A DNA stretch of 46,158 bases from Candidatus Zapsychrus exili (GCA_030765585.1 JAVCCJ010000069.1:1-46158), one strand, 5' to 3'; counted from the first letter of the stretch, positions 1-31,412 are shown. Numbers and translations: made by a program. The notes: generated by a model not told the origin, from the sequence alone.

Positions 1-3000
1 TATATACGTTAATATTGCCTCACTTTTACGCCAATCTACAACACGAGCATCTTTCAAGCCTAAGGCTTCTTTAGCAGAAGTTACTGCTATTTTTTCTGCC
101 TCGTCAAGTATCAACATTGCTTTATCAACTTGTACTATCTGTTGTTTTTTCTTTTGATCAAACGCTTGTTTTGCAAAATGTAAAATAGCTTCTGCTTCAC
201 TTAATGCTTCTACTCTATCTATTGTTTTTAGACTTTTAGCAAGTTCTCCAATAATTTTAATAGAATTTAATTCATGCTCTGGATTCAAAAGATAAAGTTT
301 GATCATATCTCTTCCTTCATCAGTTACATTTTTATTAGCGAAGCTCTTCACAACTTCTGATGCAATTTGCTCGTCTCTCTCAACATTCTCTCCCAACCGA
401 TCAACTGCCCATCTCTTCATTCTATCTTCTAGCTTTTCTAAAGCTTTTTTACTATTCTTTGCTATCCCAAAGATTCTTACGCCAACTTCTGTAACCTCAA
501 AGGAATTATTGCTTGTAGAATTCCTTTGCGTTCCAAAAGGAATTTCTCTTACATTATAAATAATTTTTATATCTCCAAAATCTCTTTCCATATTCTTTAA
601 AATATTCATTATATTCCAAAACTTAGATTTTTCTAAAATATGAAAATAATTCATTTCCAATTCTGCTTTTGATAAACCATCATATTTCTCTCTTATTGGC
701 TCTCCACCAACAAATGAAAACGGTACATTTGCTTGTTTTATGTCATTAACAGGCTCTTTCCACATAGATAGGCCGCTTCTCAATATTCCCAGCGCCTTGC
801 TTACTTCTCCAAATCTTCCTGAGAATTTAGAAACTGAAAAACCTTTGCCTTTAAACTCTTCTAAAATTCCTCTCTGCTCTCTTAATTCTCCCTGTCTAAA
901 CATTAACCAAAGCCCCAACTCTTCTTTAAGCTTTTTAAGATTCTCTTCAGTATTTTTTGAATTCTTCTTATACACTATTGAAGTTCTATAGACTTCTACA
1001 CCATCAACTTCCCTCCTGCTATACTGAATATCTACTCCGGAGAAATCCTTTTCTATCATATACAATACATCGTTTAGCAACCAAAACTCTTTTACTTGCT
1101 CAGGATAATCTTCCAGTTTTCCACCATTAATATGTATGCTAACAGGATGCATCTTAAATCTTGCTTCACTCACATCATTTGTATTGTACCTATTAACAAC
1201 AATAGCTTTCTTTGTTTTATAATATGCATGTATACCAAGTGCATCATTTGGAAGAATGTTATGATAAAGATTATTTATAGCACCCAAATGTTTTTGACTT
1301 AACATCGCTTGATCAGCAGGATTATCTTTCTCTAATGCTTCAATCTGTTCAATAACGCTTGGCAAATGTTGAGACAATTCTGTTGCCTCCAAAATTTGCT
1401 TTTGTGCCAATAATCCGACTTTTTCTGCAGCATAATAATTATCAGCTTTTATTCTTGCCAAAACCTCACCCTTAATATCCGAAACACTTTCTACCAACTG
1501 AACATAAAATCTTAAAGTTTGAGAAGTTCCTGACGGACGAATGGTTATGTAATTCTTACTATCTCTAAAGTCAGATTCTTCAGTAAGATTCGAATCTTCA
1601 AAAAAGAATCTAATTCCCTCATCAGGAGCATTTTCATAAATTAAATGATCTGCTCTTCCAGATCTAAAATCAACTGCTCCAATAACTTTCCTGCCAGCAA
1701 TAACAAGAGAATCTCCCTCTCCATTTGCTCTTTTTAACCATTCTTCTGTTTTTTCAATAATTTGAATTTTATCAGAAACACCTGCCGCACCTTCAAAAGA
1801 CCCAATCCTCGGCAAGGCTTTATTAGCTGTTGCATAATGTCCTATTTGTCTATAGATACCATCTAGTAGCTCAAACATAGTCGTACCTTGTGATTCTGCA
1901 TACGCAGCTACTTCGGCCAAAAGAACAGATGCCAATGTCCCATCCTTTTCGAAAGTATGTCCAGTCACGCTAAAACCATTTGATTCTTCAAAAGAATAAA
2001 CACGAATTCCATCTTTCATTGCCTCTTCCATAATTTCTGCAAGATATGTAAATCCAACCCAAGTACGAGAATTTGTTAAATAATTTCCTCGATCAACTTT
2101 TCCTGTTTTATCCTTCATCCTTCCAAGAGCATCAACCCCAAATGTTTTTGCAATCTCTGCGATAGCATCTGTTGTCACATGACTAATAGCAACCTTCGTT
2201 TTGTTAAGATCTACCTTTCCTAACTCGCTTCCTCGTTTTAGCTGATACCACAACAATAATGTCCATGCATCGTTTGCAGAAAGCAGACGAGATTTTCCAA
2301 AATATTTCTGCTGATTTACTGGAACTTTTACCTCTATACCTGTTCGATCTGCATCAGGATCTGTTCCTAATAATATATCTAATGCGTCAAATGCATCTTG
2401 CCCATATTCTTCAATAAATTCTCGAACAGCAGCTTTTCCTGCTAATGGATCGCCAGGATCAGGCTGTTCTCCCCATCCAAAGGCAGGAAATAAACCGTCC
2501 AATTTTTGAAGGGCTGTAATAGCTTTATAATTTGTAAATCCTATTTCCTTCAACAATCTTGGCACTGCTTTAAAACCAGCACCATTATATGCAGAATACC
2601 CTATCTGAATTTTATTGCCCCATTCTTCTATTAACGTTTCATCCACCAAAAACTTCTTAACTTGATTAACATGCAGAGTATGCATATCCTCTAGAGGAAA
2701 ATCATAGTATTCTTTGTTTGAAAGCTTTTCGTTCCCACCAAGCCATACGAGGTTCCCAGGCTTTGCCTCTGTAATAGACTTGGCTAATTTTATTTCAGAA
2801 AACTCAACATTAGGGACTTTCGCAGAAACAGCATCTTTAACTTCTTGATTTAACTGAGCTCCATTCTCCAATGTAATTTTATATCCATTATAAATATTAG
2901 GATTATGACTAGCGGACATTAAAATTCCAATATCTGCCTTTACAAGATCTGTTGTAATCCCGTAACTTAATTCTGGGAAAGGGCTAGCTTCATCAAAAAG

Positions 3001-6000
3001 AAATATTTTAAACTCATGCGAAGCCTCTGACTGTCCAATAAATAACCGTGCAACCATATCAGCAAATTCTGCACCAGCAATACGACTATCATAACCAATC
3101 AACACTTTCTTTAATCCATTTTCTTTTGCATATTTGATTACAGCCATTGTTTCAAGAAAGATAACAATATCATTAATCATATTAGGGCCTTTTAAAATTT
3201 TCGCCCCAATACCTTCTTCTTTTAACTTTAAAAGCTCTTCTTTTGTAAAAACAGCCTTACCTCTTACTCCTGCAGTTCCAAATGAAATCAATTGTCGGTA
3301 AGCTTCAATGATTTCATCCCAGCGTCCTTCCTTCATAGCTTCAACAACTCCAGCCTTATAATTTGGAGAAAGCACATCCAACTCTTTAGAAGTCATCCAC
3401 TGCTTAAGGTTACGATACGTATTAGCCGTAGCTTTTCATGAATTCCTTTGTAATCTTTTGCTTTTAATTGCGCATCTAATCTCTTTTAATTTCCTTTCTG
3501 CCTTTGGAAGATATGTCATGTTGATTTCTTCCTGCAATTCTTCTGTCAACATCGCTTGATCTTTATTAAACTTTTCATCAAACTTTCTAATTGTTTTAAT
3601 AGCAGAAGTAGAAAGTCCGGAAGTTTCTAGCTTTGAAGTATCAATAATAGAAGGAAGAACTTTATTTGTTGCAACTTTCTTGCCTAATTGAACTCCCCAC
3701 TGATCAAAAGAAAAAATATTCCAAATAACACCTTCTGCAAATATTTGATGCTCATACATAGAAATAAGATTTCCTAAAGCTCTAGGAGTAACTTTATCTA
3801 TCAATATTGATGTAGTAGGTCTATTTCCTGGAAAAGTTTTGTGTTGAGAAAGCATTCTAAGCCACTCGAGATCAACCGTTTTATTTTTAGGATCAGCTTC
3901 AAGTTCTGCTAATGCCTCCTCTTGGGTTAAACCAAAGGCTAAAGCTTCTGTCTGAGCTATGTAATTAGAGAAGAACTTATCATGATGTCCTTCTACTAAG
4001 TTTTGAGGATTAATAACTCCAATAAAGTCCGCTGGTATTATTCCGCCTTCTATCATTTGATGAAGTAATTGATAAAAAGAATGTTGTCCATCAGTTCCAG
4101 CAGCGCCAAATACAGCGAGTCCAGTAGGGTAATCAACAGGATTTCCATTGCGGTCAACAAACTTTCCATTGCTTTCCATAAAAAATTGTTGTGAGAACGA
4201 TGGAATCAATCCTAAGTTTTCATCATAAGGTAGAATAGCAAAACTTTTTGCTCCCAAGAAATTACCATACCAAATATTTAAAAGTGCTTTTAAAACAGGA
4301 ATATTATCTTGGAATTCTGTTTTTCTAAAATGTTCATCTGATTCCCTAGCACCTTCTAAGAATTCAAGAAAATTATCAAATCCCGCGTATATTGATACAG
4401 ACAATCCAATAGCTGACCAAACTGAATAACGTCCGCCAACCCAATCCCAAAATTCAAACATATTTTCTGTGTCAATTCCAAACTCTTTAACAAGCTTCTC
4501 TGCTGTTGAAACAGCAACAAAATGTTTTTCAATAATTTCTTTATCTCTGATTGGAGTATTCTTAAATAATTTATTAAGCCTAGTATTCATAATTCTTTCA
4601 GCAAAAGAACCAGATGGACTTAACTTACTCAGAAATCTTCTTAATGGTTTCTTGTTATAAGAGTCAAGAACCCATTTTCTTAATGTTTGTGCATTTTGCA
4701 TAGTTTCTTGAGTTGTAAAAGTTTTAGATGCAATAATCACAAGCGTTTCTTCTGGGTCTAAATTCTTCATAAGCTCAGCAACTGCATTTCCATCGATATT
4801 GGAAAGAAAATAAGTATTTACATCGCCTTGTTTGTAAGGTTTTAAAGCTTCAACTGCCATTTTTGGCCCTAATGCAGAGCCTCCGATACCTACATTAATA
4901 ACATTCTTTATTTTTTTACCAGTTGCTCCGCGCCATTGTCCTGATTGAACTTTCTTTGTAAAACCTTCCATCTTATTAAGTACAGCAATAACTTTAGGCA
5001 TTACATCTTCTTTATCAACTAAAACAGGACCATTAGCCGCAACGAGCTTGCCTTCTTCATTCCTTTTAACATTACGAAGTGCAGTATGAAGAACAGCACG
5101 ATTTTCTGTTTCATTTATTTTTGCCCCAGTAAACATAAGCTCAATAGCGCCTTTTAATCCAGATTCTTCTGCAAGTAATAACAAGGCATTTAAGATTGTA
5201 TCATCAATGAGGTTCTTCGAAAAATCCACCTCAAAACCATCATTTAATTTTTTAAGAAGCTTAATTGCACGCTCAGGATTTTCATTAAATAACTTTCTAA
5301 GATCAAGTTTCCTAGCTGCATTTGCTTCTAAAAATTCCCAAGCATCTGTTTTTGCTGGATTAACACGAGGAAGAACGCCTGCCACCATCGCTTGATCTGT
5401 CATATCTCTCTTCAATTTAAAATCATATTTCAACAGGCCTTGTTTTGTTTCATTTACTGCAATTTGGCCAATATCTTTCTTAGCAAGAAGTTCTCTGCTT
5501 GTATGCCCTCTTAATTGACCGACAGTATCTATACCATGTCCCTTTAAAAGGTTCGCTGTTTTTTTAGATATCGGAAGCGCATCTACCGATTGATTGCTTA
5601 TAGGGAAAAGTGCTCTGTTAGCTAATTGATATTCCTCTTTATTGATTCCTTCAATTTTAACTTCGCGTCCGCCAAGATTTTTTTGAAGTGTCATTGATCT
5701 AACAATTCCATTTTTTGTTCTATAAAGAATTCTGTTATTAGTTCCTTTTTCCCAAAGCTCATTTATAGCAGCTGTTCCTAAATCTTGTGTTAAACCATAA
5801 TCAAAATCAGAGATATCGGCTTCTCTTGTTGCATAATCTTCTTTACCTACCAAAGATATCTTTGTGTCCAATGCGACTCCCAAAGGCTCAAGAAGATTAA
5901 CTAAAGTCTTTGCAGCGTCTTTTAATTTTGCATGTCCGAACGAATCTACCTCAATATTTGCTGGAATTACTATATCATCTAAACTAAATTTAATACCTTC

Positions 6001-9000
6001 AGACACTACAACCAAACCATAACCATGCTCTTTGTAAAATTTAGCTAAATCTACTTTTAATTTCTCGATATCTACGGGTCCTTCCTCAGGAATTATTGAT
6101 CTTGTTGCACCAACACCTTCACCTATACCAATAGTTGTAAAACCAGCATCGCGCCCAAAAACCTCTACCACCATTATTCTTCCCAAATTTATCGCAGAAG
6201 TCTTTATTGCCTTTGCTCTTCTTATTCCTTCTTGAACAAAAGTATCATACCCATATGTTGAAACCCCACCTGGAAGAGTTATATCATTGTCCATTGTCTT
6301 AGGCACACCTAACACCATAAGATCTGGAAACATTTTCTGAAGTTTTTGCGCAGCTCCATTTGTATCATCTCCACCGCAAGTGATAAGAGCGTCTAGTCCA
6401 AGCTTTTGAACATTGCCTCTTACTTTTTCTGGAACACCATCCTTTATATTTTTAGTACTAAAAGGATTTGTTCTAGATGTTCCAATAAAAGACCCACCTT
6501 TTTTCTCATGAAGTTCAGCTTCCTCTATATCTATAACTTCTGCTTGTTCTACTAAATTATCCTCCACTAATCCAGCCCAACCACTCTTTATTCCAACTAA
6601 TACTACCTTTTTGCCAGTCTTTTTGCTTAACTCCATTGTTTGTCTTTTAGCTGCTGTTATAAGAGAGTTATGACCTGTTGCAAGCCCACCACCAGTTAAA
6701 ATACCAATTTTTATTACATCTTTATCTAATGTGCTAAGTGGCGCTAATTTCTTTGCCATCATTGCTTGGTCATAAGAAGTAACTTTGGCTAATGATTGTC
6801 TATTATTTTCTGCTGCAATTATTGTGTCTTCTGGTTCTTTTACTGGAGCGAAAATATCTTTTCTTGGCGCATTATAATATGCAACCTTAGCCCCATCTAT
6901 ATGAGCTACTTGAAGCATAATTCTAGTAAGCTGGACAACAGGTATTTCTGTTTTTCCATCTTTTACTATACCTATATCAGAATATTCTCCATCTACTACA
7001 TGTTTCTTAAATTCAAAATTAGCTTTTATTTGTTTAACTAATTTTTCACGAACCAATTCAGACCTTTCCTCAAAATTCATTTCAGCAAGTTCTTTTTCTG
7101 TAACGTCTAGAAACCTAAGCAAACTTTTTGCTCTTAAGATAACTGTATTTGTATTAAAGAATGGGGCATTTGCATGATCAAAATCAGGCTGCAATTCAAA
7201 TCCCTCTTTCATCGTTACTTCGCCTGTTCTATCTTCTTTCTCGTCAACATATTCGACTAAAGTCCCACCAGTCTCAGGCTTTGAGAATATTTCAGCTTCA
7301 ATATAGCCTCCATCAAAAATATTAACAACATCGACTGTTTTGTCTTTTTGGTTAATTACATATCTAACGCCATTTTTCTCTGCGAAACCTTCATATTCAT
7401 TTATTCCATCAAAAGATATTAAATTGTCTCTAAATCGAACAATGGCTTTAACTGCTACTTTTGATTTCTTATGTTTTATGGTGTAAGTTATATTCTTCTC
7501 GGCAAGTAAAAATCCAAAATCGCTTTCGCTTTTGGCAAAATGAGCAAGCATACCGTCATTTTTTAAAACAGCCTGCAAATTATCAATATTAAAAACAGGA
7601 ATATACTCTACTCCTTGAGACAGGGCATCTGAAAACCTTCCAGATATGATAAATGATGCAACTGCATCAAAATGCCCAGCAGGAACTTTTCTCTCTTTAC
7701 CATTAAATCTATAAATACCATCAGGATTTTCTTTTCTTATTTTAGAAGCTAAGGCCTTAAATTTTGACCACTCTTGTTTTTTATAGTTCGCTTCTATTTC
7801 TTGATCTGTTGGAATAAAAGTGTCTATTACCCCCTGAACAAAAAATTTAAAAGTTTTTTCTCTCATTCCATAATAATTCTTTTCTATCGCTAATTGCTCT
7901 TTAAACTCTGCCAATCTCTTTTCGCTCGATAAAAGATACAAGGGCACTTCTTCACCAAAAGTTTTTTCTATCCATCTAATATTCGCAGCTTTTATCTCTA
8001 AGAAATCACCTAATGTCGCATCAACCTTAACAAAAGTTTTTGGACCTCCGAAACGCGTTGCCTCTCCGCCTATCATAACTATTGGAGCAATCTTGCCATC
8101 TCTATACATTTCAGCCTCTGCTTCTACATACGCTTTTTTTGCATTACTATCTAAACTAGACCAATCTATAACTGCCTCTACCTTTGCTGGAACAACTTTT
8201 TTTGGATCAACATTCTTATGAAAACCTATTTTACCTTCATTTCTTTGCTTAACTAGCTGTTGAAAATCTTCAAGAGTAATTGTAGCTGCTGTTATTTCTC
8301 CTTCTTCGGTAATCATCGCCGCATCACTACCTGCTTTAGCAACAAGGATACCTACCTCATCTAAAGACTCTGCAAGATTCACATTTACTCTACTAGTTAA
8401 CCCTGCCACATCAGCCGCTTGTGCTAATAAAGCACTATCAACTGTATTCTCATTAACTGTTTTTATGACTTTACTAAATTCTTGATTCATACCACCAGAG
8501 AAGTATTTCTTAGGTATGATTTCTTGTGTTTCTGAATTGTACTCTTCCTTTATATAGTTATATACGCCTGTCTTAAACGCTTCTAGGTATTGATTATAAA
8601 TTTCTTGCTTTACATTCTTGTTCTCTAAATCTATTCCAGTTACTTTGTTTTGATCTACATATACTTTGCCTAATAAAGATTCTTTTAGATTCATCTTAAA
8701 CCAGGTAGCAAGTATCATAGAATTTGATATTTGTCTTAGAAGAGCAAAGTTTTTGCCTGTATTTACTTCACGTTCTAGTTCAGGGATGATGATTTCTTTT
8801 ATTATTTGAGTAGTAGTTGAATTATCTAATGCAGTGCCTTCTTTAGTTGAAAGATATTCTTTATCTAGTAAGACCTTTAGTTCTGATTCAAGTACAAAAG
8901 CAGAGTTATCTTTTTCATATACAGTTGCAGAACTTGGAACTATCCAAACTCTGTTTAGAGTATCTGTATTTATATCAGTTGTTCCAAACTCTTGCTTTGT

Positions 9001-9519
9001 TCTTTTATATATCTTATTCCAGAATTTCTTACCTGTTTCTCCTTCAGGATGCATTAAAGAAGCTGTTAATTGCTTTAATATATAGTCCTGAGCAAGTAAA
9101 TCACGGCCCATTTCAGTATGACCTAGCTTCTCAGGCATTATTTTATCTGGTTGAGATGGGTTTAAATTGACCCATAATTGATCTTCAGGAACGGTAAGTG
9201 TTGCAAGGAAATATTTGATGAGTTTAAGTGATTCTTCTTCTAATTGCTCCCCTTTTAGCTTATTATCACCAGAATCAACGATAAAGTCGAATTCTAGAGG
9301 ATTTTCAGGATGAATTGTTATCCCTTTTACTATTGTGGGGGTGAAATCATTGCTAAGTGGCACAATTTGCCCTAAAATAGGCATATTTGTACTGTTAAGT
9401 GACACACTCTGCCCATATGAAGGCGGAATAATAGCAGTAAATACAAATGAAAATGCTATAAATGAACATAATACTTTATAAGCTAAACTTGTTTTTGATT
9501 TTGGAATAGAACTCATCAT
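1..9519 (-). CDS. Giant multi-enzyme protein, at least 3173 codons, 3' end beyond the window. Signal peptide, N-terminal domain, UGPase-like, PFK, RpoA-CTD-like, PGI, PGM and unknown modules; interrupted by one in-frame TGA at 3436-3438
   Basis: ORF 3436..9519 plus my manual translation of 3435..1 in the same frame, with no stop to the window edge. AGGAGG RBS at 9529-9534. Hydrophobic N-terminus VLCSFIAFSFVFTAII. Confidence 0.85.
1315..3546 (-). other. Phosphoglucomutase/phosphomannomutase module of the giant protein (absent from the ORF track)
   Basis: Manual translation gives FGTAGVRG, IGYDSR, catalytic SASHNP, metal loop DPDADR, FEESNG, KDG and IRPSGT. Confidence 0.95.
3562..5382 (-). other. 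Glucose-6-phosphate isomerase module of the giant protein
   Basis: ENRAVLHTALR, GIGGSALGP, SKTFTTQET, FWDWVGGRYSVWSAIGL, MESNGK, QHSFYQLLHQ, FDQWGVQLGK. Confidence 0.95.
5410..5595 (-). other. RNA polymerase alpha-CTD-like (HhH) domain within the giant protein
   Basis: LPISKKTANLLKGHGIDTVGQLRGHTSRELLAKKDIGQIAVNETKQGL follows the pattern LSVRxxNxLKxxGIxTVGDL...ELLxxxNxGxKSLxEIKxxL. Confidence 0.7.
5600..6756 (-). other. 6-phosphofructokinase (PfkA family, PPi-type signature) module of the giant protein
   Basis: KIGILTGGG, GGSFIGTSRTNP, GGDDT, PKTMDND, VEVFGRDAG, VVSEG, DSFGH. Confidence 0.93.
6772..8310 (-). other. UTP-hexose-1-phosphate uridylyltransferase (UDPGP family) module of the giant protein
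   Basis: GGEATRFGGPK, PAGHFD, NIDNL, GGTLV, FFNTNT and FAPVK match the UGPase motifs GGLGTRMG..PK, PPGHGD, NIDNL, GGTL, FNTNN, FxPVK. Confidence 0.85.
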
Positions 9520-20167: not shown

Positions 20168-20949
20168 TTTCTTTCTAAATAATTTAACCAAGCTTTATTA
20201 AGTCTTTTGAGATTATTAAATCTAGGATAAATAGATTCTAAAGTCCATTCAAAAGGACGACCTTTTTCTAACGCTCTGCAAAATCTAACAAATTTTAACT
20301 TACCTAAATCATTAATCATATAATTTACTATACTCGCAGATTCTGCATAAAAAAGATTTATAGTAGCCTGGTCTGTCTTTCTATACAATTTTAAATTTGT
20401 AAGTTCGTCTAGCGGTATAAATCTCTCATCATCTATTGCCTCTTTTACAGCCTTATGTGCGCCCCACCTTCTTGCTTTTTCCTGATACATTGCAATACCT
20501 TCTTCAAACCACTGCGGAGCCTCTGCTTTAAATCCTACAAACTCTCTAAATATAATATGACCTAATTCATGAGGAAGAACTGAATCAAAGAAACCATGCG
20601 CTGCAGGAAAAGTACGAATAGTTTTTGATTTAGCAAAAGCTAAACCATGCGACCACGGAGCACGCGTTGCAGCCTTTTTATAATCATCGGCGTCATTATA
20701 AATATAAATTTTTGCTCTTTCGTCCCAAGTCCAACCTTTATAACGAACAAAACCTAAATTTTTTGAGATCTCATCATAATACTCTTCTGCTGCCTCTTCT
20801 ACCGCATAAACAAACTCTTCAGGAGCTTCTTTATAATAAATAATAAAATGTCTTTTCTTGTATTCTTTCCAAACTCCTTTTGCAAAAGAAAATTTGCCTA
20901 TAAAAAATAATAATAAAACGATACATATTAATAAGATTTTCTTTTTCAT
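20164..20949 (-). CDS. Secreted zinc metallopeptidase (MA-like, HExxH)
   Basis: Signal peptide, LPHELGH, WFEEGIA, FYAES. Confidence 0.8.
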   Translation of the reverse strand: MKKKILLICIVLLLFFIGKFSFAKGVWKEYKKRHFIIYYKEAPEEFVYAVEEAAEEYYDEISKNLGFVRYKGWTWDERAKIYIYNDADDYKKAATRAPWSHGLAFAKSKTIRTFPAAHGFFDSVLPHELGHIIFREFVGFKAEAPQWFEEGIAMYQEKARRWGAHKAVKEAIDDERFIPLDELTNLKLYRKTDQATINLFYAESASIVNYMINDLGKLKFVRFCRALEKGRPFEWTLESIYPRFNNLKRLNKAWLNYLERK

Positions 20950-21950
20950 TTTACAAGTCCAATAATTTCCTTAGCCAAGTTATCTGCTGCATCAGAAAAA
21001 GATAACTCTTCAAATAATTGACTATATTTACCAAAAGAGGGTTGTCTGCTTATCATATCACATATATTTTCTACTAAAACTTGACTTCTTAAATTCTTTT
21101 CATCAATTAATTTAGCCAAATTTCTTGAAACCAATATATCTGCATTAGCCTTTTGATGGTTCTTTATTGCATGTGGATAAGGAATAAGGACTGAAGGCAA
21201 TTTAAAAAGCAAAACTTCAGATATTGTTGCAGCACCTGCGCGAGATACAACCAAGTCAGCTGCAGAATAAGCATATTCCATTTCATATAAAAATTTAGCT
21301 ATAAAGAATTTTACACCCAAAGTAGCGTACTTCTCCTTTAAAGCATCAAAATCTTCTTTGCCTGATAAATGAATTACCTGAATATCAAATTTACTTCTTA
21401 TTTCATTTACGGATTCAATAAATTCTAAATTAATACGCTTACTTCCTTGGCTTCCACCAACAACTAAAATAGTATACTTGTTATTATCCAATCCAAAATA
21501 TTCTAGAGCTTTTTGCCTGTCTATTGTATTCTTTATATTGGCCGGACATCCTGTTAAAACAGTCTTTTTCTCGTTAAAATACTTAAAACTATCTTTAAAG
21601 GTTACTGCAATTCTTTTAACTATCTTAGAGAGAACTTTATTCGCTCGTCCAGAAAGTACATTCTGTTCATGAATCATTGTTGGGATTCCTAGTAGTGATG
21701 CTAAAAATACAGGATAAAAAGATGCATATCCTCCAAACCCTAAGACAGCATCAGGTCTATACTCTATTAAAGTTTTAAATGACGAAAAAATCGGCTCTAT
21801 ATATCTTTTAAAAAATAAAAATTTAGTACCTTTCTTGACAGAGTGCCCAACAAGCAAAGTATCGCAACCTTTCTCTTTTAATTTCTCTTCAACTTTTAAA
21901 GCAGGAAAAAGATGACCACCTGTCCCTCATGCTGCTAAAATAATTTTCAT
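20946..21950 (-). CDS. murG: MurG glycosyltransferase; codon 8 reads TGA (probable GGA error or nonsense mutation)
   Basis: MKIILAA*GTGGHLFPAL is in frame with GFGGYAS, HEQN, GGSQG, SRAGA and HQKANA. Confidence 0.9.
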
Positions 21951-21956
21951 ACTTTC

Positions 21957-23054
21957 TTATTCTCCGTAAAGATCTTCTACTCTAGAAATATTAAGCAGTA
22001 ATCCCACTGCTACCATATTAAATACCAACGCAGAACCTCCATAGCTTATAAACGGTAGCGGTAGCCCCTTAGTAGGAAGCGCACCTATACTTACACCAAT
22101 ATTTATCATAGCCTGTAAGCCCAACATTAAAACAATTCCAATTCCTAAATAATACCCAAAAGGATCATTAGTACGTTTTACAATTCTTGCGCCTTGCCAA
22201 ATAAAAGCAATAAACAAAAACACAACAACCAATGTCCCCAATAGCCCTACTTCTTCTCCAATAATTGATAATATAAAATCAGTATGCGCAGCCGGAAGAT
22301 AAAATAATTTTTGTACACTTTTTCCTAAGCCGACGCCAAGTATTCCTCCTGACCCTAAAGCAATTTGTGATTGAGACAATTGAAAGCCCGATCCTAAACT
22401 ATCTTTCCAAGGATCTATAAAAGCGACGATTCTTCTTAAACGATACGGGACCTTAACTACCAAGAAATATAAAGCAGGCACTAATAATGTCATCAAAACA
22501 GCCATATATGATGTTTTTATCCCCGATATAAACATCATAATCAAAACTATACTTGCTATTAAGACCGAGTTTCCCAAATCTGGCTGCTTAACAACCAAAA
22601 GACAAACCACACCTAATACTAAAATAGGAGGAACAAATCCAACCCAAAATCTTGTTATCTTGCTTTGTTTTCTCGACAAGAAATCTGCAACATAGATTAA
22701 GGTAGTTAATTTTGCAAATTCAGAAGGCTGAAAACTAAATGGTCCAACCTTAAACCAACGCCTTGCGCCAAAACTTGCTTTGCCAATGCTAGGAATAAGA
22801 ACTAAAGCAAGTAAAAGAATTGTAAAAAGCATTAGAGGTTTTGAAAATCTCTTAAGCTCCCTATAATCAAAAAACATCGTAAAGCCCATCAAAACAAAAC
22901 CAAAACATAAAAACAAAATATGTCTATTTAAGAAATAAGAGCTATCTCCTATTTCTTTAAGAGCATAAATTCCACTTGAGCTATAAATCATTGTAATGCC
23001 AATACTAATAAGGCAAGCAACAATAGCTGCAATAGATATCCTAATATTTCTCAC
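21957..23054 (-). CDS. ftsW: SEDS peptidoglycan polymerase FtsW
   Basis: GARRW, QPSEFAK, QPDLG, LPAAHTDFI, LPFISYGGS. Confidence 0.95.
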   Translation of the reverse strand: MRNIRISIAAIVACLISIGITMIYSSSGIYALKEIGDSSYFLNRHILFLCFGFVLMGFTMFFDYRELKRFSKPLMLFTILLLALVLIPSIGKASFGARRWFKVGPFSFQPSEFAKLTTLIYVADFLSRKQSKITRFWVGFVPPILVLGVVCLLVVKQPDLGNSVLIASIVLIMMFISGIKTSYMAVLMTLLVPALYFLVVKVPYRLRRIVAFIDPWKDSLGSGFQLSQSQIALGSGGILGVGLGKSVQKLFYLPAAHTDFILSIIGEEVGLLGTLVVVFLFIAFIWQGARIVKRTNDPFGYYLGIGIVLMLGLQAMINIGVSIGALPTKGLPLPFISYGGSALVFNMVAVGLLLNISRVEDLYGE

Positions 23055-30511: not shown

Positions 30512-31412
30512 CTAAATCCTCTCCGCTACTCTAAATCTTGCGCTACGTGCACGCAGGTTTTCATTTACTTCCTTGTCAGTTGGTCTTAAAGGCTTCTTTG
30601 TTATTATTTTTGCTTTTAAATCCCCAGCTAAGACCTTAAATTTATTCTTAACAATTTTATCCTCAAGAGAATGAAATGCGATAATGCCTATACGACCACC
30701 TGGATTTAAGAAATCAAAACACTTATCCAATACTATCTCTAGTGATTCTAATTCTCTGTTTACTGCAATTCTAAAAGCCTGAACCGTTCTTGTTGCTGGA
30801 TGTATCTTATATCTTGCCTTCATGCGAGGGATAGCTCTTAGGATAATCTTGCTCAACTGTTTTGTGGTTGAAATGGGTTCCTCCGCCCGCATCAAAACTA
30901 TTTTCTGAGCTATCCTCTTGTGCCATTGTTCTTGACCGAAATCATTAAGTATTTGAGATATCTCTTGTTCAGATAAAGAATTAATCAAATCAAAAGCAGA
31001 TATCTTACTTCCCTGATCCATTCTCATATCTATTGGACCATTATGTCTTATACTAAAACCTCTCTCTGCATTGTCTAATTGTAGGCTTGAAAGCCCCAAA
31101 TCAAGCAATATTCCGTTCGAGAGACTTTATTTCTAAATTGTTTAATACTTTATCTATATTCTTAAAATTGTCCTGTACTAAATCACACCGACAATCATAC
31201 TGTTCTAAATCTTTTTTTGCCAACTCTAAAGCTTGCTTATCACGATCTATCCCTATCAATCTTCCGTCAGATCCAAGAATCTTTGCTATTTCTTTTGAAT
31301 GTCCAGCTAAACCCAATGTTCCATCTAAAAATATTGATCCAGGTTTTAAATTTAAATATTCAATTACCTCACCCAACATAACGGGAGTATGAATATTTTG
31401 TGTTCCTTGCAT
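30512..31412 (-). CDS. rsmH: 16S rRNA m4C1402 methyltransferase, split by a +1 frameshift at about 31116
   Basis: HTPVM, DGTLGLAGH, then DLGLSSLQLD, DMRM, HPATR, FHSLED, RARSA. Removing one A restores LDGILLDLG. Confidence 0.92.

Follow-up and report, generated by a model that had tools for sequence, protein, structure and literature searches.

A predicted Sec-exported, modular carrier of sugar-phosphate enzymes in an Omnitrophota genome

The window analyzed here, 46,158 nucleotides long, is a whole contig (C83) of a 2.04-Mb, 96%-complete Omnitrophota MAG. On its minus strand, an open reading frame begins with ATG at 9519 and runs to 3436 (2027 aa), and the same frame goes on from 3435 to base 1, where it leaves the end of the contig. 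An initial, sequence-only reading of this DNA had described one frame of at least 3173 codons coding for an exported string of sugar-phosphate enzymes. The frame does continue to the contig edge; the reading had left unmentioned the single in-frame stop that it holds, a TGA at codon 2028 (3436-3438). All features described below lie on the minus strand.

Three sequence features mark the N-terminus: its n-region is basic, residues 11-35 form a single hydrophobic stretch (Kyte-Doolittle 1.96), and a small-x-small site follows. They predict a Sec signal peptide at aa 1-36 (9412..9519) with putative cleavage between SYG and Q. The rest of the 3172 residues contains no second hydrophobic segment. 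A head domain follows at aa 37-~345 (8485..9411) and ends in a PKKYFSGG motif.

Behind the head, the frame encodes a row of modules. The first (aa 403-916, 6772..8313) belongs to the UDPGP superfamily: PF01704 matches the gene at E 3.4e-15 and the module alone with 63.9 bits, and in the PDB a UGPase comes out on top (E 1.3e-7), its alignment pairing the GGxxTxxG..GPK and PxGHxD motifs; a comparison with NCBIfam gave no match at E <= 1e-10. The second (aa 921-1374, 5398..6759) combines a PFK domain (PF00365, E 8.9e-45) with a C-terminal, RpoA-CTD-like helix-hairpin-helix (RNA_pol_A_CTD, PF03118; 24.9 bits against a cut-off of 23.8). It carries GGDD and PKTMDND motifs, and GGDD together with PKT is the signature of PPi-dependent phosphofructokinase; PPi-PFK is among its best PDB matches. 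Against NCBIfam it scores at most 168.9 (PFK_mixed) and 165.7 (PPi type), far under both cut-offs. The third (aa 1379-1986, 3562..5385) is a glucose-6-phosphate isomerase (PGI) module of the long type with an insertion of ~38 aa. It reaches 691.1 bits against NF001211 (cut-off 492) over profile positions 5-535 of 544, matches PF00342 at E 1.5e-190, and aligns to PDB 3hjb with 601 bits in two blocks that flank the insertion; judged by these matches, it is a bona fide glucose-6-phosphate isomerase.

The fourth module (1315..3549, ~745 aa) is an alpha-D-phosphohexomutase (“PGM”) interrupted by the TGA. Its domains I-III (PF02878, PF02879, PF02880) score above the gathering threshold on the second ORF, and the Pfam search of the gene gave no match to domain IV (PF00408). 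The PGM motifs SASHNP, DPDADR and RPSGT are readable in the translation and intact; orthologous modules in four relatives are 53-58% identical, and the best NCBIfam model reaches just 75.7 bits. Next comes a 392-aa orphan module (127..1302) with no match in Pfam or NCBIfam: a word-indexed search returned the module itself alone, there was no usable ESM Atlas match, and among 1.84 billion representatives an exhaustive search found none at E <= 0.001. The first 38 residues of a further module (1..114) are encoded before the gene leaves the contig. Pfam finds no peptidase family within the gene. The modules proposed by the initial reading were thus recovered, four of them by Pfam (UDPGP, PFK with RNA_pol_A_CTD, PGI and PGM_PMM), together with the 392-aa module of no known family and the one at the edge. 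We make no exact substrate call for the PFK, hexomutase and UDPGP modules, because all three score under every NCBIfam equivalog cut-off; on that point the reading had gone further than their divergence permits.

Six copies of a short delimiter, D-x-A-M, lie between the Pfam envelopes: D-A-A-M at aa 399-402 (8314..8325); D-Q-A-M at aa 917-920 (6760..6771), at aa 1375-1378 (5386..5397), at aa 1987-1990 (3550..3561) and at 1303..1314; and D-K-A-M at 115..126. A longer form, D-x-A-M-[V/L/I]-[A/T/S], stands before each module. In a family of 24 ORFs, chosen by head/tail homology or continuity and never by the motif itself, D-x-A-M occurs 83 times against 2.8 expected (30-fold), while 1217 other ORFs hold 40 against 38.5 expected. 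A role as internal translation starts was considered and rejected: a Shine-Dalgarno-like 4-mer lies upstream of 6 of the 83 sites, compared with 158 of 383 first ATGs and 9.6% of internal Met codons.

The fusion of these modules is not a misassembly, a possibility that the initial reading had raised against itself: four of the six junctions are bridged without difference by separately assembled contigs, and in relatives fusions of this kind occupy open frames of 2480-5839 aa. The bridging contigs were assembled from sequencing runs that possibly derive from the source sample itself; those of run X1 span 5641-7101, 4901-5651, 3519-4925 (with 31 bases on the short side) and 948-1531, and so cover the four D-Q-A-M junctions in the order given above.

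The TGA is a different matter. It falls in a doubtful stretch (3432..3500) covered 1-5x, where a run X1 contig (depth 2.1) has one additional base in each of four A-runs (3432, 3446, 3455 and 3461). With the four extra bases the local reading agrees with that of relatives, yet the upstream frame remains off by one. The position is read through in 4/4 relatives, the break lies 37 residues into the PGM module and away from any delimiter, and a search of the downstream part of the frame for a start codon with a Shine-Dalgarno sequence found none. Because the stretch combines low coverage with homopolymer indel disagreements, the TGA is probably an assembly error. An alternative genetic code was ruled out, as TGA ends 268 of the 1545 ORFs of at least 150 aa in the genome. 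Elsewhere on this contig a frameshift interrupts rsmH, a universal gene, and paralogs of the carrier on contigs C73 and C119 are split. Neither end of the window overlaps another contig by 12 bases or more. A candidate for the remainder of the gene is found on contig C60 (14174-16609, 812 aa, open at the contig end; no Pfam family); its tail is closest to that of the sister paralog described below, and the link between the two contigs is a candidate only, made without sequence overlap.

The head is shared by 16 ORFs of the genome, a set of paralogs that the initial reading had missed, and BLASTP relates the copy in this gene to the 15 others at E <= 1.8e-108. Its matches at E <= 1e-10 number at least 2695 among database proteins of 1114-3548 aa and at least 1087 among those of 220-700 aa, with 48-58% identity among the matches listed. 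Nearly all named homologues come from Candidatus Omnitrophica/Omnitrophota, which bears out the assignment that the initial reading had ventured. Their cargo includes PGM, PGK, PGI, UGPase, FBPase, enolase, aldolases, TPI, GAPDH, PEPCK, parts of PPDK and others; further cargo in the family comprises HTH domains, response regulators, GNAT, methyltransferases and guanylate kinase. Proteins made of head and tail with no cargo were ruled out among the eight short matches examined, which consist of a head and short unrelated C-termini. The AF2 model of the head (pLDDT 76.7, pTM 0.75) is an alpha/beta domain, for which neither Foldseek against the PDB (best E 0.15) nor VIA wide (best Z 3.5) returned a match, and the model suggests a novel fold. 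Among the weak Foldseek rows are ClyA-type pore-toxin components. The C-terminal tail of ~57 aa, which opens with GGIDLN, is found on 16 ORFs of the genome. Neither head nor tail matches a Pfam or NCBIfam family at E <= 1.

The 6 kb around each of the 24 family ORFs hold no recurrent gene, be it for a protease, a transporter or anything else. Genome searches for an ATP/ADP translocase (PF03219) and for a ShlB-type transporter came back empty, but so did their controls, which makes the ShlB result uninformative. Taken together, the family consists of lineage-restricted Omnitrophota enzyme carriers with a signal peptide, a head, modules and a tail.

The signal-peptide layout seen in this gene is present in 16/16 paralogs, with an [S/A/V]-x-[A/G] site followed by Q, a long hydrophobic stretch (16-22 residues) and a conserved, Pro-rich c-region; AF2 draws the hydrophobic N-terminus as one helix, residues 12-30. 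The Sec-like N-terminus of the initial reading therefore stands as a predicted signal peptide. Cysteine is scarce throughout the family, at 46 of 33,418 residues (0.14%) versus a background of 1.19%, and this ~9-fold depletion agrees with life outside the cytoplasm. In the present gene three of 3172 residues are Cys, of which one falls in the signal peptide and another in the doubtful stretch.

The closest paralog lies on contig C80; its head shares 89% identity with that of this gene, and it carries two GAPDH modules, PGK, enolase and a class-II-aldolase-like module. Both GAPDH copies keep SNASCTTN and have lost the second Cys of the stand-alone GAPDH, leaving the catalytic Cys as the sole one in each domain. 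The genome also has a stand-alone PGI (C98; 587.6 bits against a cut-off of 443), three stand-alone PFKs (C72, C30 and C112) and stand-alone cytoplasmic GAPDH, PGK and enolase genes. With a separate PGI and three PFKs, the modules are not the only copies in the genome. To judge from the sequences, the carrier and its sister together duplicate most sugar-phosphate steps in cysteine-purged form, alongside the cytoplasmic genes.

A possible relation between head and tail emerged from complex modeling. As this gene's own tail is off the contig, its head was paired with the tail of the sister paralog. The model scored 0.85 (runs 0.85, 0.81 and 0.86) versus 0.01 for the best control. Of 157 solved complexes 116 attain that mark, as do 2 of 215 mismatched pairs; the runs have at least 47% of contacts in common, with partner pLDDT at least 47. 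Predicted contacts join invariant head residues (W116-L119, Q144-K149, W192-P195 and L261) to tail residues 13-18, GGIDLN, and the fold of the tail is uncertain in the complex (pLDDT 48-58). An AF2 model of a whole natural member of 786 aa gave no support for docking in cis, with tail pLDDT 30-42, though just four alignment rows reached the tail. Divergence of head and tail across 11 proteins showed no co-variation (Spearman -0.06; the observed Pearson r was reached by 451 of 5000 permutations). That the tail plugs into the invariant groove of the head is thus supported by one model, and the AF2 full-length model does not confirm it.

On balance, we lean towards reading the locus as one gene, split in the assembly by an indel-ridden stretch, for a modular, soluble enzyme carrier that leaves the producer's cytoplasm through Sec and does its work beyond it. 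Its cargo would be a UDP-sugar pyrophosphorylase-like module, a PFK with a PPi signature and a helix-hairpin-helix, PGI, a phosphohexomutase and at least two orphan modules. The sequence points to Sec export followed by cleavage of the signal, and the kept catalytic motifs, with the selective loss of non-catalytic Cys, suggest that, once exported, the modules are folded and enzymatically active. If the docking model is right, the GGIDLN strand of the tail would enter the groove of the head and either close the molecule or chain molecules head to tail. D-x-A-M, given its enrichment, may be a recognition site at the peptide level, possibly a cleavage site. The enzymes might act on the metabolites of a host or prey cell that is attached or lysed, or within such a cell; the cargo calls for NAD, ADP, PPi, UTP, SAM and even DNA, none of which a periplasm supplies. 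Glycolysis in the periplasm or outside the cell, with no obvious source of cofactors, is a point against the proposal. A bolder version seems unlikely to us: head and tail would be a universal plug and socket by which the ~16 exported strings of a single cell chain into a heteropolymeric extracellular metabolic coat or close as rings; a complete, cysteine-free, PPi-economical glycolysis, made up of this protein and its sister, would operate in the lysate or cytoplasm of attached prey, and D-x-A-M would be the sought-after cutting or hinge site of Omnitrophota giant proteins.

Several other accounts of the same features have to be weighed. The N-terminal helix might stay uncleaved and hold the string on the periplasmic side of the inner membrane, as an anchored metabolon that processes imported sugar phosphates; the initial reading had named an anchored metabolon as its alternative. 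The length of the hydrophobic stretch and the AF2 helix would fit such an anchor, and the available part of West-Roberts et al. (10.1101/2023.11.21.568195) proposes sugar pre-processing outside the cytoplasm for domains of this kind. We nevertheless find the idea improbable, as the conserved Pro-rich c-region and the small-x-small site followed by Q resemble a cleavage site in 16/16 paralogs, and the HTH, response regulator, GNAT, methyltransferase and guanylate kinase cargo has no known periplasmic substrate or cofactor. Alternatively, the N-terminus could anchor a string whose bulk is cytoplasmic, a fused and channelled glycolysis. All cargo enzymes do depend on cytoplasmic cofactors, and a 2026 preprint (10.64898/2026.06.07.730766), in its available passages, calls nearly half of long Omnitrophota proteins membrane-anchored with cytoplasmic domains. 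Such a scaffold is, in our estimate, very unlikely here, for it leaves the ~9-fold Cys depletion with kept catalytic Cys unexplained and the genome has separate cytoplasmic PGI, PFK, GAPDH, PGK and enolase. The topology also speaks against it: under the positive-inside rule, basic residues ahead of a helix, as found here, predict N-in, C-out.

Export might also serve no pathway at all. Surface GAPDH, enolase and PGI act as binding or adhesion modules in other bacteria, and three of the four identified modules here are strongly diverged. Omnitrophota giant proteins are, moreover, usually interpreted as adhesion or attack tools in the literature available to us in part. Enzyme folds used purely for moonlighting display nonetheless strike us as very unlikely when PGI, at 691 bits, exceeds a cut-off of 492, both sister GAPDH domains have kept the catalytic Cys alone, SASHNP, DPDADR and RPSGT are intact, and neighbouring steps of a pathway are gathered on two sister proteins. 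Finally, the gene could be broken, or be two genes, if the TGA is real; a tail-less head protein of 2027 aa would then be made, and the PGM part would be silent or separately expressed. The assembly does contain the TGA, the two parts stay in different frames with the alternative contig, and the C73 and C119 paralogs are split as well. This too is very unlikely: the break sits inside a module and off any delimiter, 4/4 relatives read through it, the downstream part lacks a start codon with a Shine-Dalgarno sequence, coverage is 1-5x, and rsmH on the same contig is frameshifted too.

These observations matter for metabolic reconstruction. In its available text, the 2026 preprint (10.64898/2026.06.07.730766) counts glycolytic genes by family in Omnitrophota, e.g., PGI in 67 of 176 genomes; members of these families encoded behind a signal peptide, in a carrier purged of cysteine, may serve no cytoplasmic glycolysis. 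Published work on Omnitrophota long proteins, as far as its accessible passages go, asks whether they are cleaved and notes no known cleavage points, and the D-x-A-M delimiter together with the predicted head-tail docking gives a concrete handle on the question of cleavage and assembly. If an ultra-small, probably host-dependent bacterium does export pathway segments, this would be a mode of host exploitation for which our literature search found no bacterial precedent.

Among known systems, the cellulosome offers a likeness in working only. Its enzymes consist of a Sec leader, an enzyme and a dockerin that plugs into a cohesin; here, too, exported enzymes would have a short C-terminal plug and a conserved receptor domain, the docking being predicted, and many different enzymes would thereby be organised extracellularly. 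The carrier differs in that searches of it detected no dockerin or cohesin family, in that it bears plug and socket on one polypeptide, and in that it carries central metabolism rather than glycoside hydrolases. The TpsA exoproteins of two-partner secretion (FhaB, and CdiA with its VENN delimiter) are large and Cys-poor, with a Sec signal, a conserved ~300-aa N-terminal domain and a short motif that borders swappable C-terminal cargo. The carrier shares the Sec-type signal with an N-terminal domain of ~300 aa, the Cys poverty and the short motif at the cargo border, whereas its head is alpha/beta with no beta-helix match and no TPS-domain match in Pfam.

In the secreted hexokinases of microsporidia (PMC6460350, available in part), an organism that depends on its host has likewise added a signal peptide to an enzyme of glycolysis otherwise found in the cytosol, and sends it out towards the host. 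That example is one eukaryotic enzyme with an experimentally determined location, while the present case concerns fused bacterial pathway segments known from sequence alone. The nearest relatives are the long multi-enzyme proteins of Omnitrophota, including the “Archaeovorins”, for which our literature search found only two reports (10.1101/2023.11.21.568195; 10.64898/2026.06.07.730766). Their available passages describe, in the same phylum, fused sugar-phosphate enzymes (GPI, PGM/PMM, FBA, TPI, FBPase and PPDK) with signal peptides and a predicted location outside the cytoplasm, and cleavage is a question raised there as here. Archaeovorins are given as at least 30,000 aa long, with numerous TM regions and SecA-DEAD-like domains. 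This protein, at ~3-4 kaa, differs: we found at least 3173 codons, one hydrophobic segment and no SecA family in Pfam. Head, D-x-A-M and tail are features of the present family that the available passages of the two preprints do not mention, and in those of the 2026 preprint (10.64898/2026.06.07.730766) “linker”, “polyprotein” and “cleav” each have 0 occurrences. These passages do report multi-enzyme long proteins in Omnitrophota; what they do not report is the frame of fixed head, D-x-A-M and tail around enzymes of cytoplasmic type.

The sugar-phosphate enzymes of the carrier gene form one half of a set: the upper and lower steps are divided between two sister proteins, one encoded in the window and the other by its closest paralog on another contig of the same genome (L001, C80:14983-23955, 2991 aa), whose N-terminal head domain is 89% identical to that of the window gene. 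The cargo of this sister comprises two tandem GAPDH modules, PGK, enolase, a 99-aa mini-module and a class-II-aldolase-like module. In the carrier gene itself, all on the minus strand, Pfam recovers UDPGP, PFK, PGI (E 1.5e-190) and PGM_PMM domains I-III, together with an RNA_pol_A_CTD helix-hairpin-helix that only just clears its threshold (24.9 bits; cut-off 23.8). The sequence-only reading of this gene is partly confirmed. Its modules stand; an ATG-initiated ORF of 2027 aa runs from 9519 to 3436 (minus strand) and its frame goes on from 3435 to base 1, the sole break in 9519..1 being a TGA at 3436-3438. Beyond the hexomutase, neither a 392-aa module (127-1302, minus strand) nor the 38 residues at the contig edge has a Pfam or NCBIfam match, and the former has no detectable relative among 1.84 billion representative proteins. 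This orphan module is flanked in frame by two delimiters of the kind described next.

Fifteen further ORFs of the genome share the head (BLASTP with the first 400 residues; E ≤ 1.8e-108; 44-89% identity), always at the N-terminus of proteins of 599-2991 aa, and the modules after it are set apart by the motif D-x-A-M-[V/L/I/M/T]-[A/T/S]. In the 24 family ORFs, chosen by homology to the head, by homology to a C-terminal tail or by continuity with such an ORF, D-x-A-M occurs 83 times versus 2.8 expected; the 1217 other ORFs of at least 200 aa contain 40 versus 38.5 expected. The Ala codon of the delimiter is GCR (GCA or GCG) in 71 of 83 cases, compared with 58% for other Ala-Met pairs. Complete members end in a conserved tail starting GGIDLN, which 16 ORFs carry. 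Other paralogs bear PEP-utiliser domains, methyltransferases, GNAT, GHKL ATPases, guanylate kinase, NUDIX and tandem HTH modules. We rejected the delimiter as an internal translation start, since SD-like words precede 6 of the 83 motifs versus 158 of 383 first ATGs. A 9937-aa giant membrane protein (C24:37451-67261) has D-x-A-M three times within ~430 residues (5767, 6088, 6200). In a relative's genome (G008), a complete 2889-aa protein with head, PGM module and tail (L028, C14:211-8877) lacks the exact motif and has D-A-A-I-L ahead of the PGM module, so the fourth delimiter position can vary.

The window is the entire contig C83 of an assembly of 2,044,061 bases (129 contigs, 34% GC; completeness 96%, contamination 0.7%), and the in-frame TGA could reflect recoding, a gene border or an assembly error. 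Recoding is ruled out because TGA is an ordinary stop in this genome, where 268 of the 1545 ORFs of 150 aa or more end in it. As for a border, the codon sits 37 residues into the hexomutase module, away from any module edge, and its position is read through in all four relatives that have this module (53-58% identity, within open frames of 5839, 2889, 2480 and 891 aa). Coverage of the carrier gene is 1-5x, and a contig (depth 2.1) assembled separately from the sequencing run X1 lengthens four A-runs (at 3432, 3446, 3455 and 3461) by one base each; this four-base version translates as LDAQLKSKKITKGIHEKATANTY... and matches the relatives well. The four bases mend the reading locally but put the upstream frame off by one.

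Comparable breaks occur elsewhere. The universal gene rsmH (mraW; 30512-31412, minus strand) is broken into two ORFs of different frame, with the frameshift just ahead of the GILLDLG motif, probably a mark of indel errors in a low-coverage assembly. Two paralogs (L009, C73:6257-14507; L010, C119:3378-11319) are each split into head-bearing and tail-bearing ORFs that overlap in different frames, and in the latter the break falls within a module. Taking these observations together, we consider it very probable that the TGA at 3436-3438 is an assembly error rather than a gene border. The MurG ORF (20946-21957, minus strand) is short at 303 aa, its N-terminal domain matching profile positions 70-138 only, with a gap of 100 bases ahead of it, possibly owing to a further frame error. 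That the fusion itself is a misassembly finds no support in the X1 contigs, which bridge delimiters 2, 3, 4 and 5 without a difference (1 and 6 lie outside the listed pieces), although X1 is possibly the source sample and so amounts to a second assembly with no independent data.

The PGI module (3562-5385, minus strand) is a bona fide long-type PGI by its scores (NF001211, 691 bits versus 492; 601 bits to PDB 3hjb). It contains a ~38-aa basic insertion, at module residues ~243-280, between halves that align to solved PGIs. The PFK module carries GGDD and PKTMDND, which we take to mark PPi-dependent enzymes, yet despite this signature it falls below every equivalog cut-off; the stand-alone PFK on C72 has GGDG and PGT. 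The hexomutase module shows the motifs SASHNP, DPDADR and RPSGT, and the alignment of the UDPGP module to UGPases is weak. Separate housekeeping copies, which bear on whether the modules serve the cell's own cytoplasm, exist for pgi (short-type, C98, 428 aa; NF010697, 587.6 bits versus 443) and pfk (C72, PFKA_ATP 390.7 versus 371; C30; C112), as they do for GAPDH, PGK and enolase. For pgm the candidate is one stand-alone hexomutase (C52), which is ambiguous, scoring below the Arch_GlmM cut-off (295 versus 439), and is therefore not counted as a second true PGM.

The Sec-like N-terminus noted at the outset recurs in all 16 paralogs as a basic n-region, a hydrophobic core and [S/A/V]-x-[A/G]|Q, features that suggest a signal peptide; no second hydrophobic segment was found in the carrier protein. 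Low cysteine is expected of proteins whose folding or transit takes place outside the cytoplasm. The 24 family ORFs contain 46 Cys in 33,418 residues (0.14%, against a background of 1.19%), and the three of the carrier protein lie in the signal peptide, the GGDD loop of PFK and the uncertain region around the TGA. In the two GAPDH copies of the sister the only Cys left is that of the catalytic SNASCTTN; the second Cys in CTTNC, like every other Cys of the stand-alone GAPDH, is replaced. Such a pattern speaks for selection on activity combined with avoidance of cysteine. The cysteine pattern would fit folding or travel outside the cytoplasm, and the proposed export of the carrier protein appears partly supported. 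We found no recurrent protease or transporter adjoining family genes in this genome, where Omp85 is represented by one gene and secretins by seven loci. A tail-bearing family ORF (C67:1617-5949) lies ~1 kb upstream of one of these secretin loci, whose secretin contains a TAG. The remaining genes of the contig, all on the carrier gene's strand (minus), are housekeeping: a PAS-HD protein, class II ribonucleotide reductase, a U32 peptidase, a response regulator, the dcw cluster from ftsA to mraZ, ribF, truB, rbfA, ligA and riboflavin biosynthesis genes, with no export-related gene among them.

An AF2 model of the head (74-row alignment; pLDDT 76.7, pTM 0.75) predicts an alpha/beta domain whose helices and beta-hairpin are long, and no solved structure matched it (best E in Foldseek 0.15; best Z in VIA wide 3.5). 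Complex prediction with head residues 38-350 of the window gene and the sister's tail (residues 6-72 of the tail alignment) scored 0.85, 0.81 and 0.86 in three runs, against 0.01 for the best of three controls. Of 157 solved complexes 116 attain this score mark, as do 2 of 215 mismatched pairs; these calibration counts apply only roughly because our own alignments were used. At least 47% of contacts are common to the runs, with partner pLDDT of at least 47, and the invariant GGIDLN is placed along head strand 190-204, touching the invariant W116-L119, Q144-K149 and L261. Against docking, the tail's own fold is uncertain in the complex model, its pLDDT is 30-42 when a whole natural 786-aa member is modelled with AF2 (the tail being covered by 4 alignment rows), and head and tail divergence do not co-vary across 11 proteins. 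The complex model thus supports a possible binding of the tail to the head, which would be either within one molecule or between molecules.

Beyond this genome, homologues of the head number at least 2695 among proteins of 1114-3548 aa (E ≤ 1e-10, from 8000 scored candidates) and 1087 among proteins of 220-700 aa (E ≤ 1e-5). Nearly all named sources are either Candidatus Omnitrophica/Omnitrophota or unclassified metagenomes, and two short partial matches carry an archaeal-MAG label. In an even sample of the phylum, 15 of 151 genomes have the head (E ≤ 1e-10), all of them members of the window's order or of four further families in the same class, with up to 17 matches per genome (11 candidates scored per genome). 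Precomputed Pfam content of the matches includes PGM, PGK, PGI, UGPase, FBPase, enolase, aldolases, TPI and GAPDH, as well as PEPCK, PPDK parts, isocitrate lyase with malate synthase, and regulators; no other protein among the matches listed joins PFK with the remaining enzymes.

We found no paper joining Omnitrophota with polyprotein, and the accessible part of Seymour et al. mentions neither signal peptides nor fusions. A 2026 preprint (10.64898/2026.06.07.730766) defines "multi-enzyme metabolic clusters", with statistics on signal peptides and TM segments; its available portion never uses the terms linker, polyprotein or cleav*. The available part of West-Roberts et al. (10.1101/2023.11.21.568195) reports giant "Archaeovorins" with no known cleavage points, predicted to be extracellular and containing TPI, GPI, FBPase, PGM/PMM and FBA domains.
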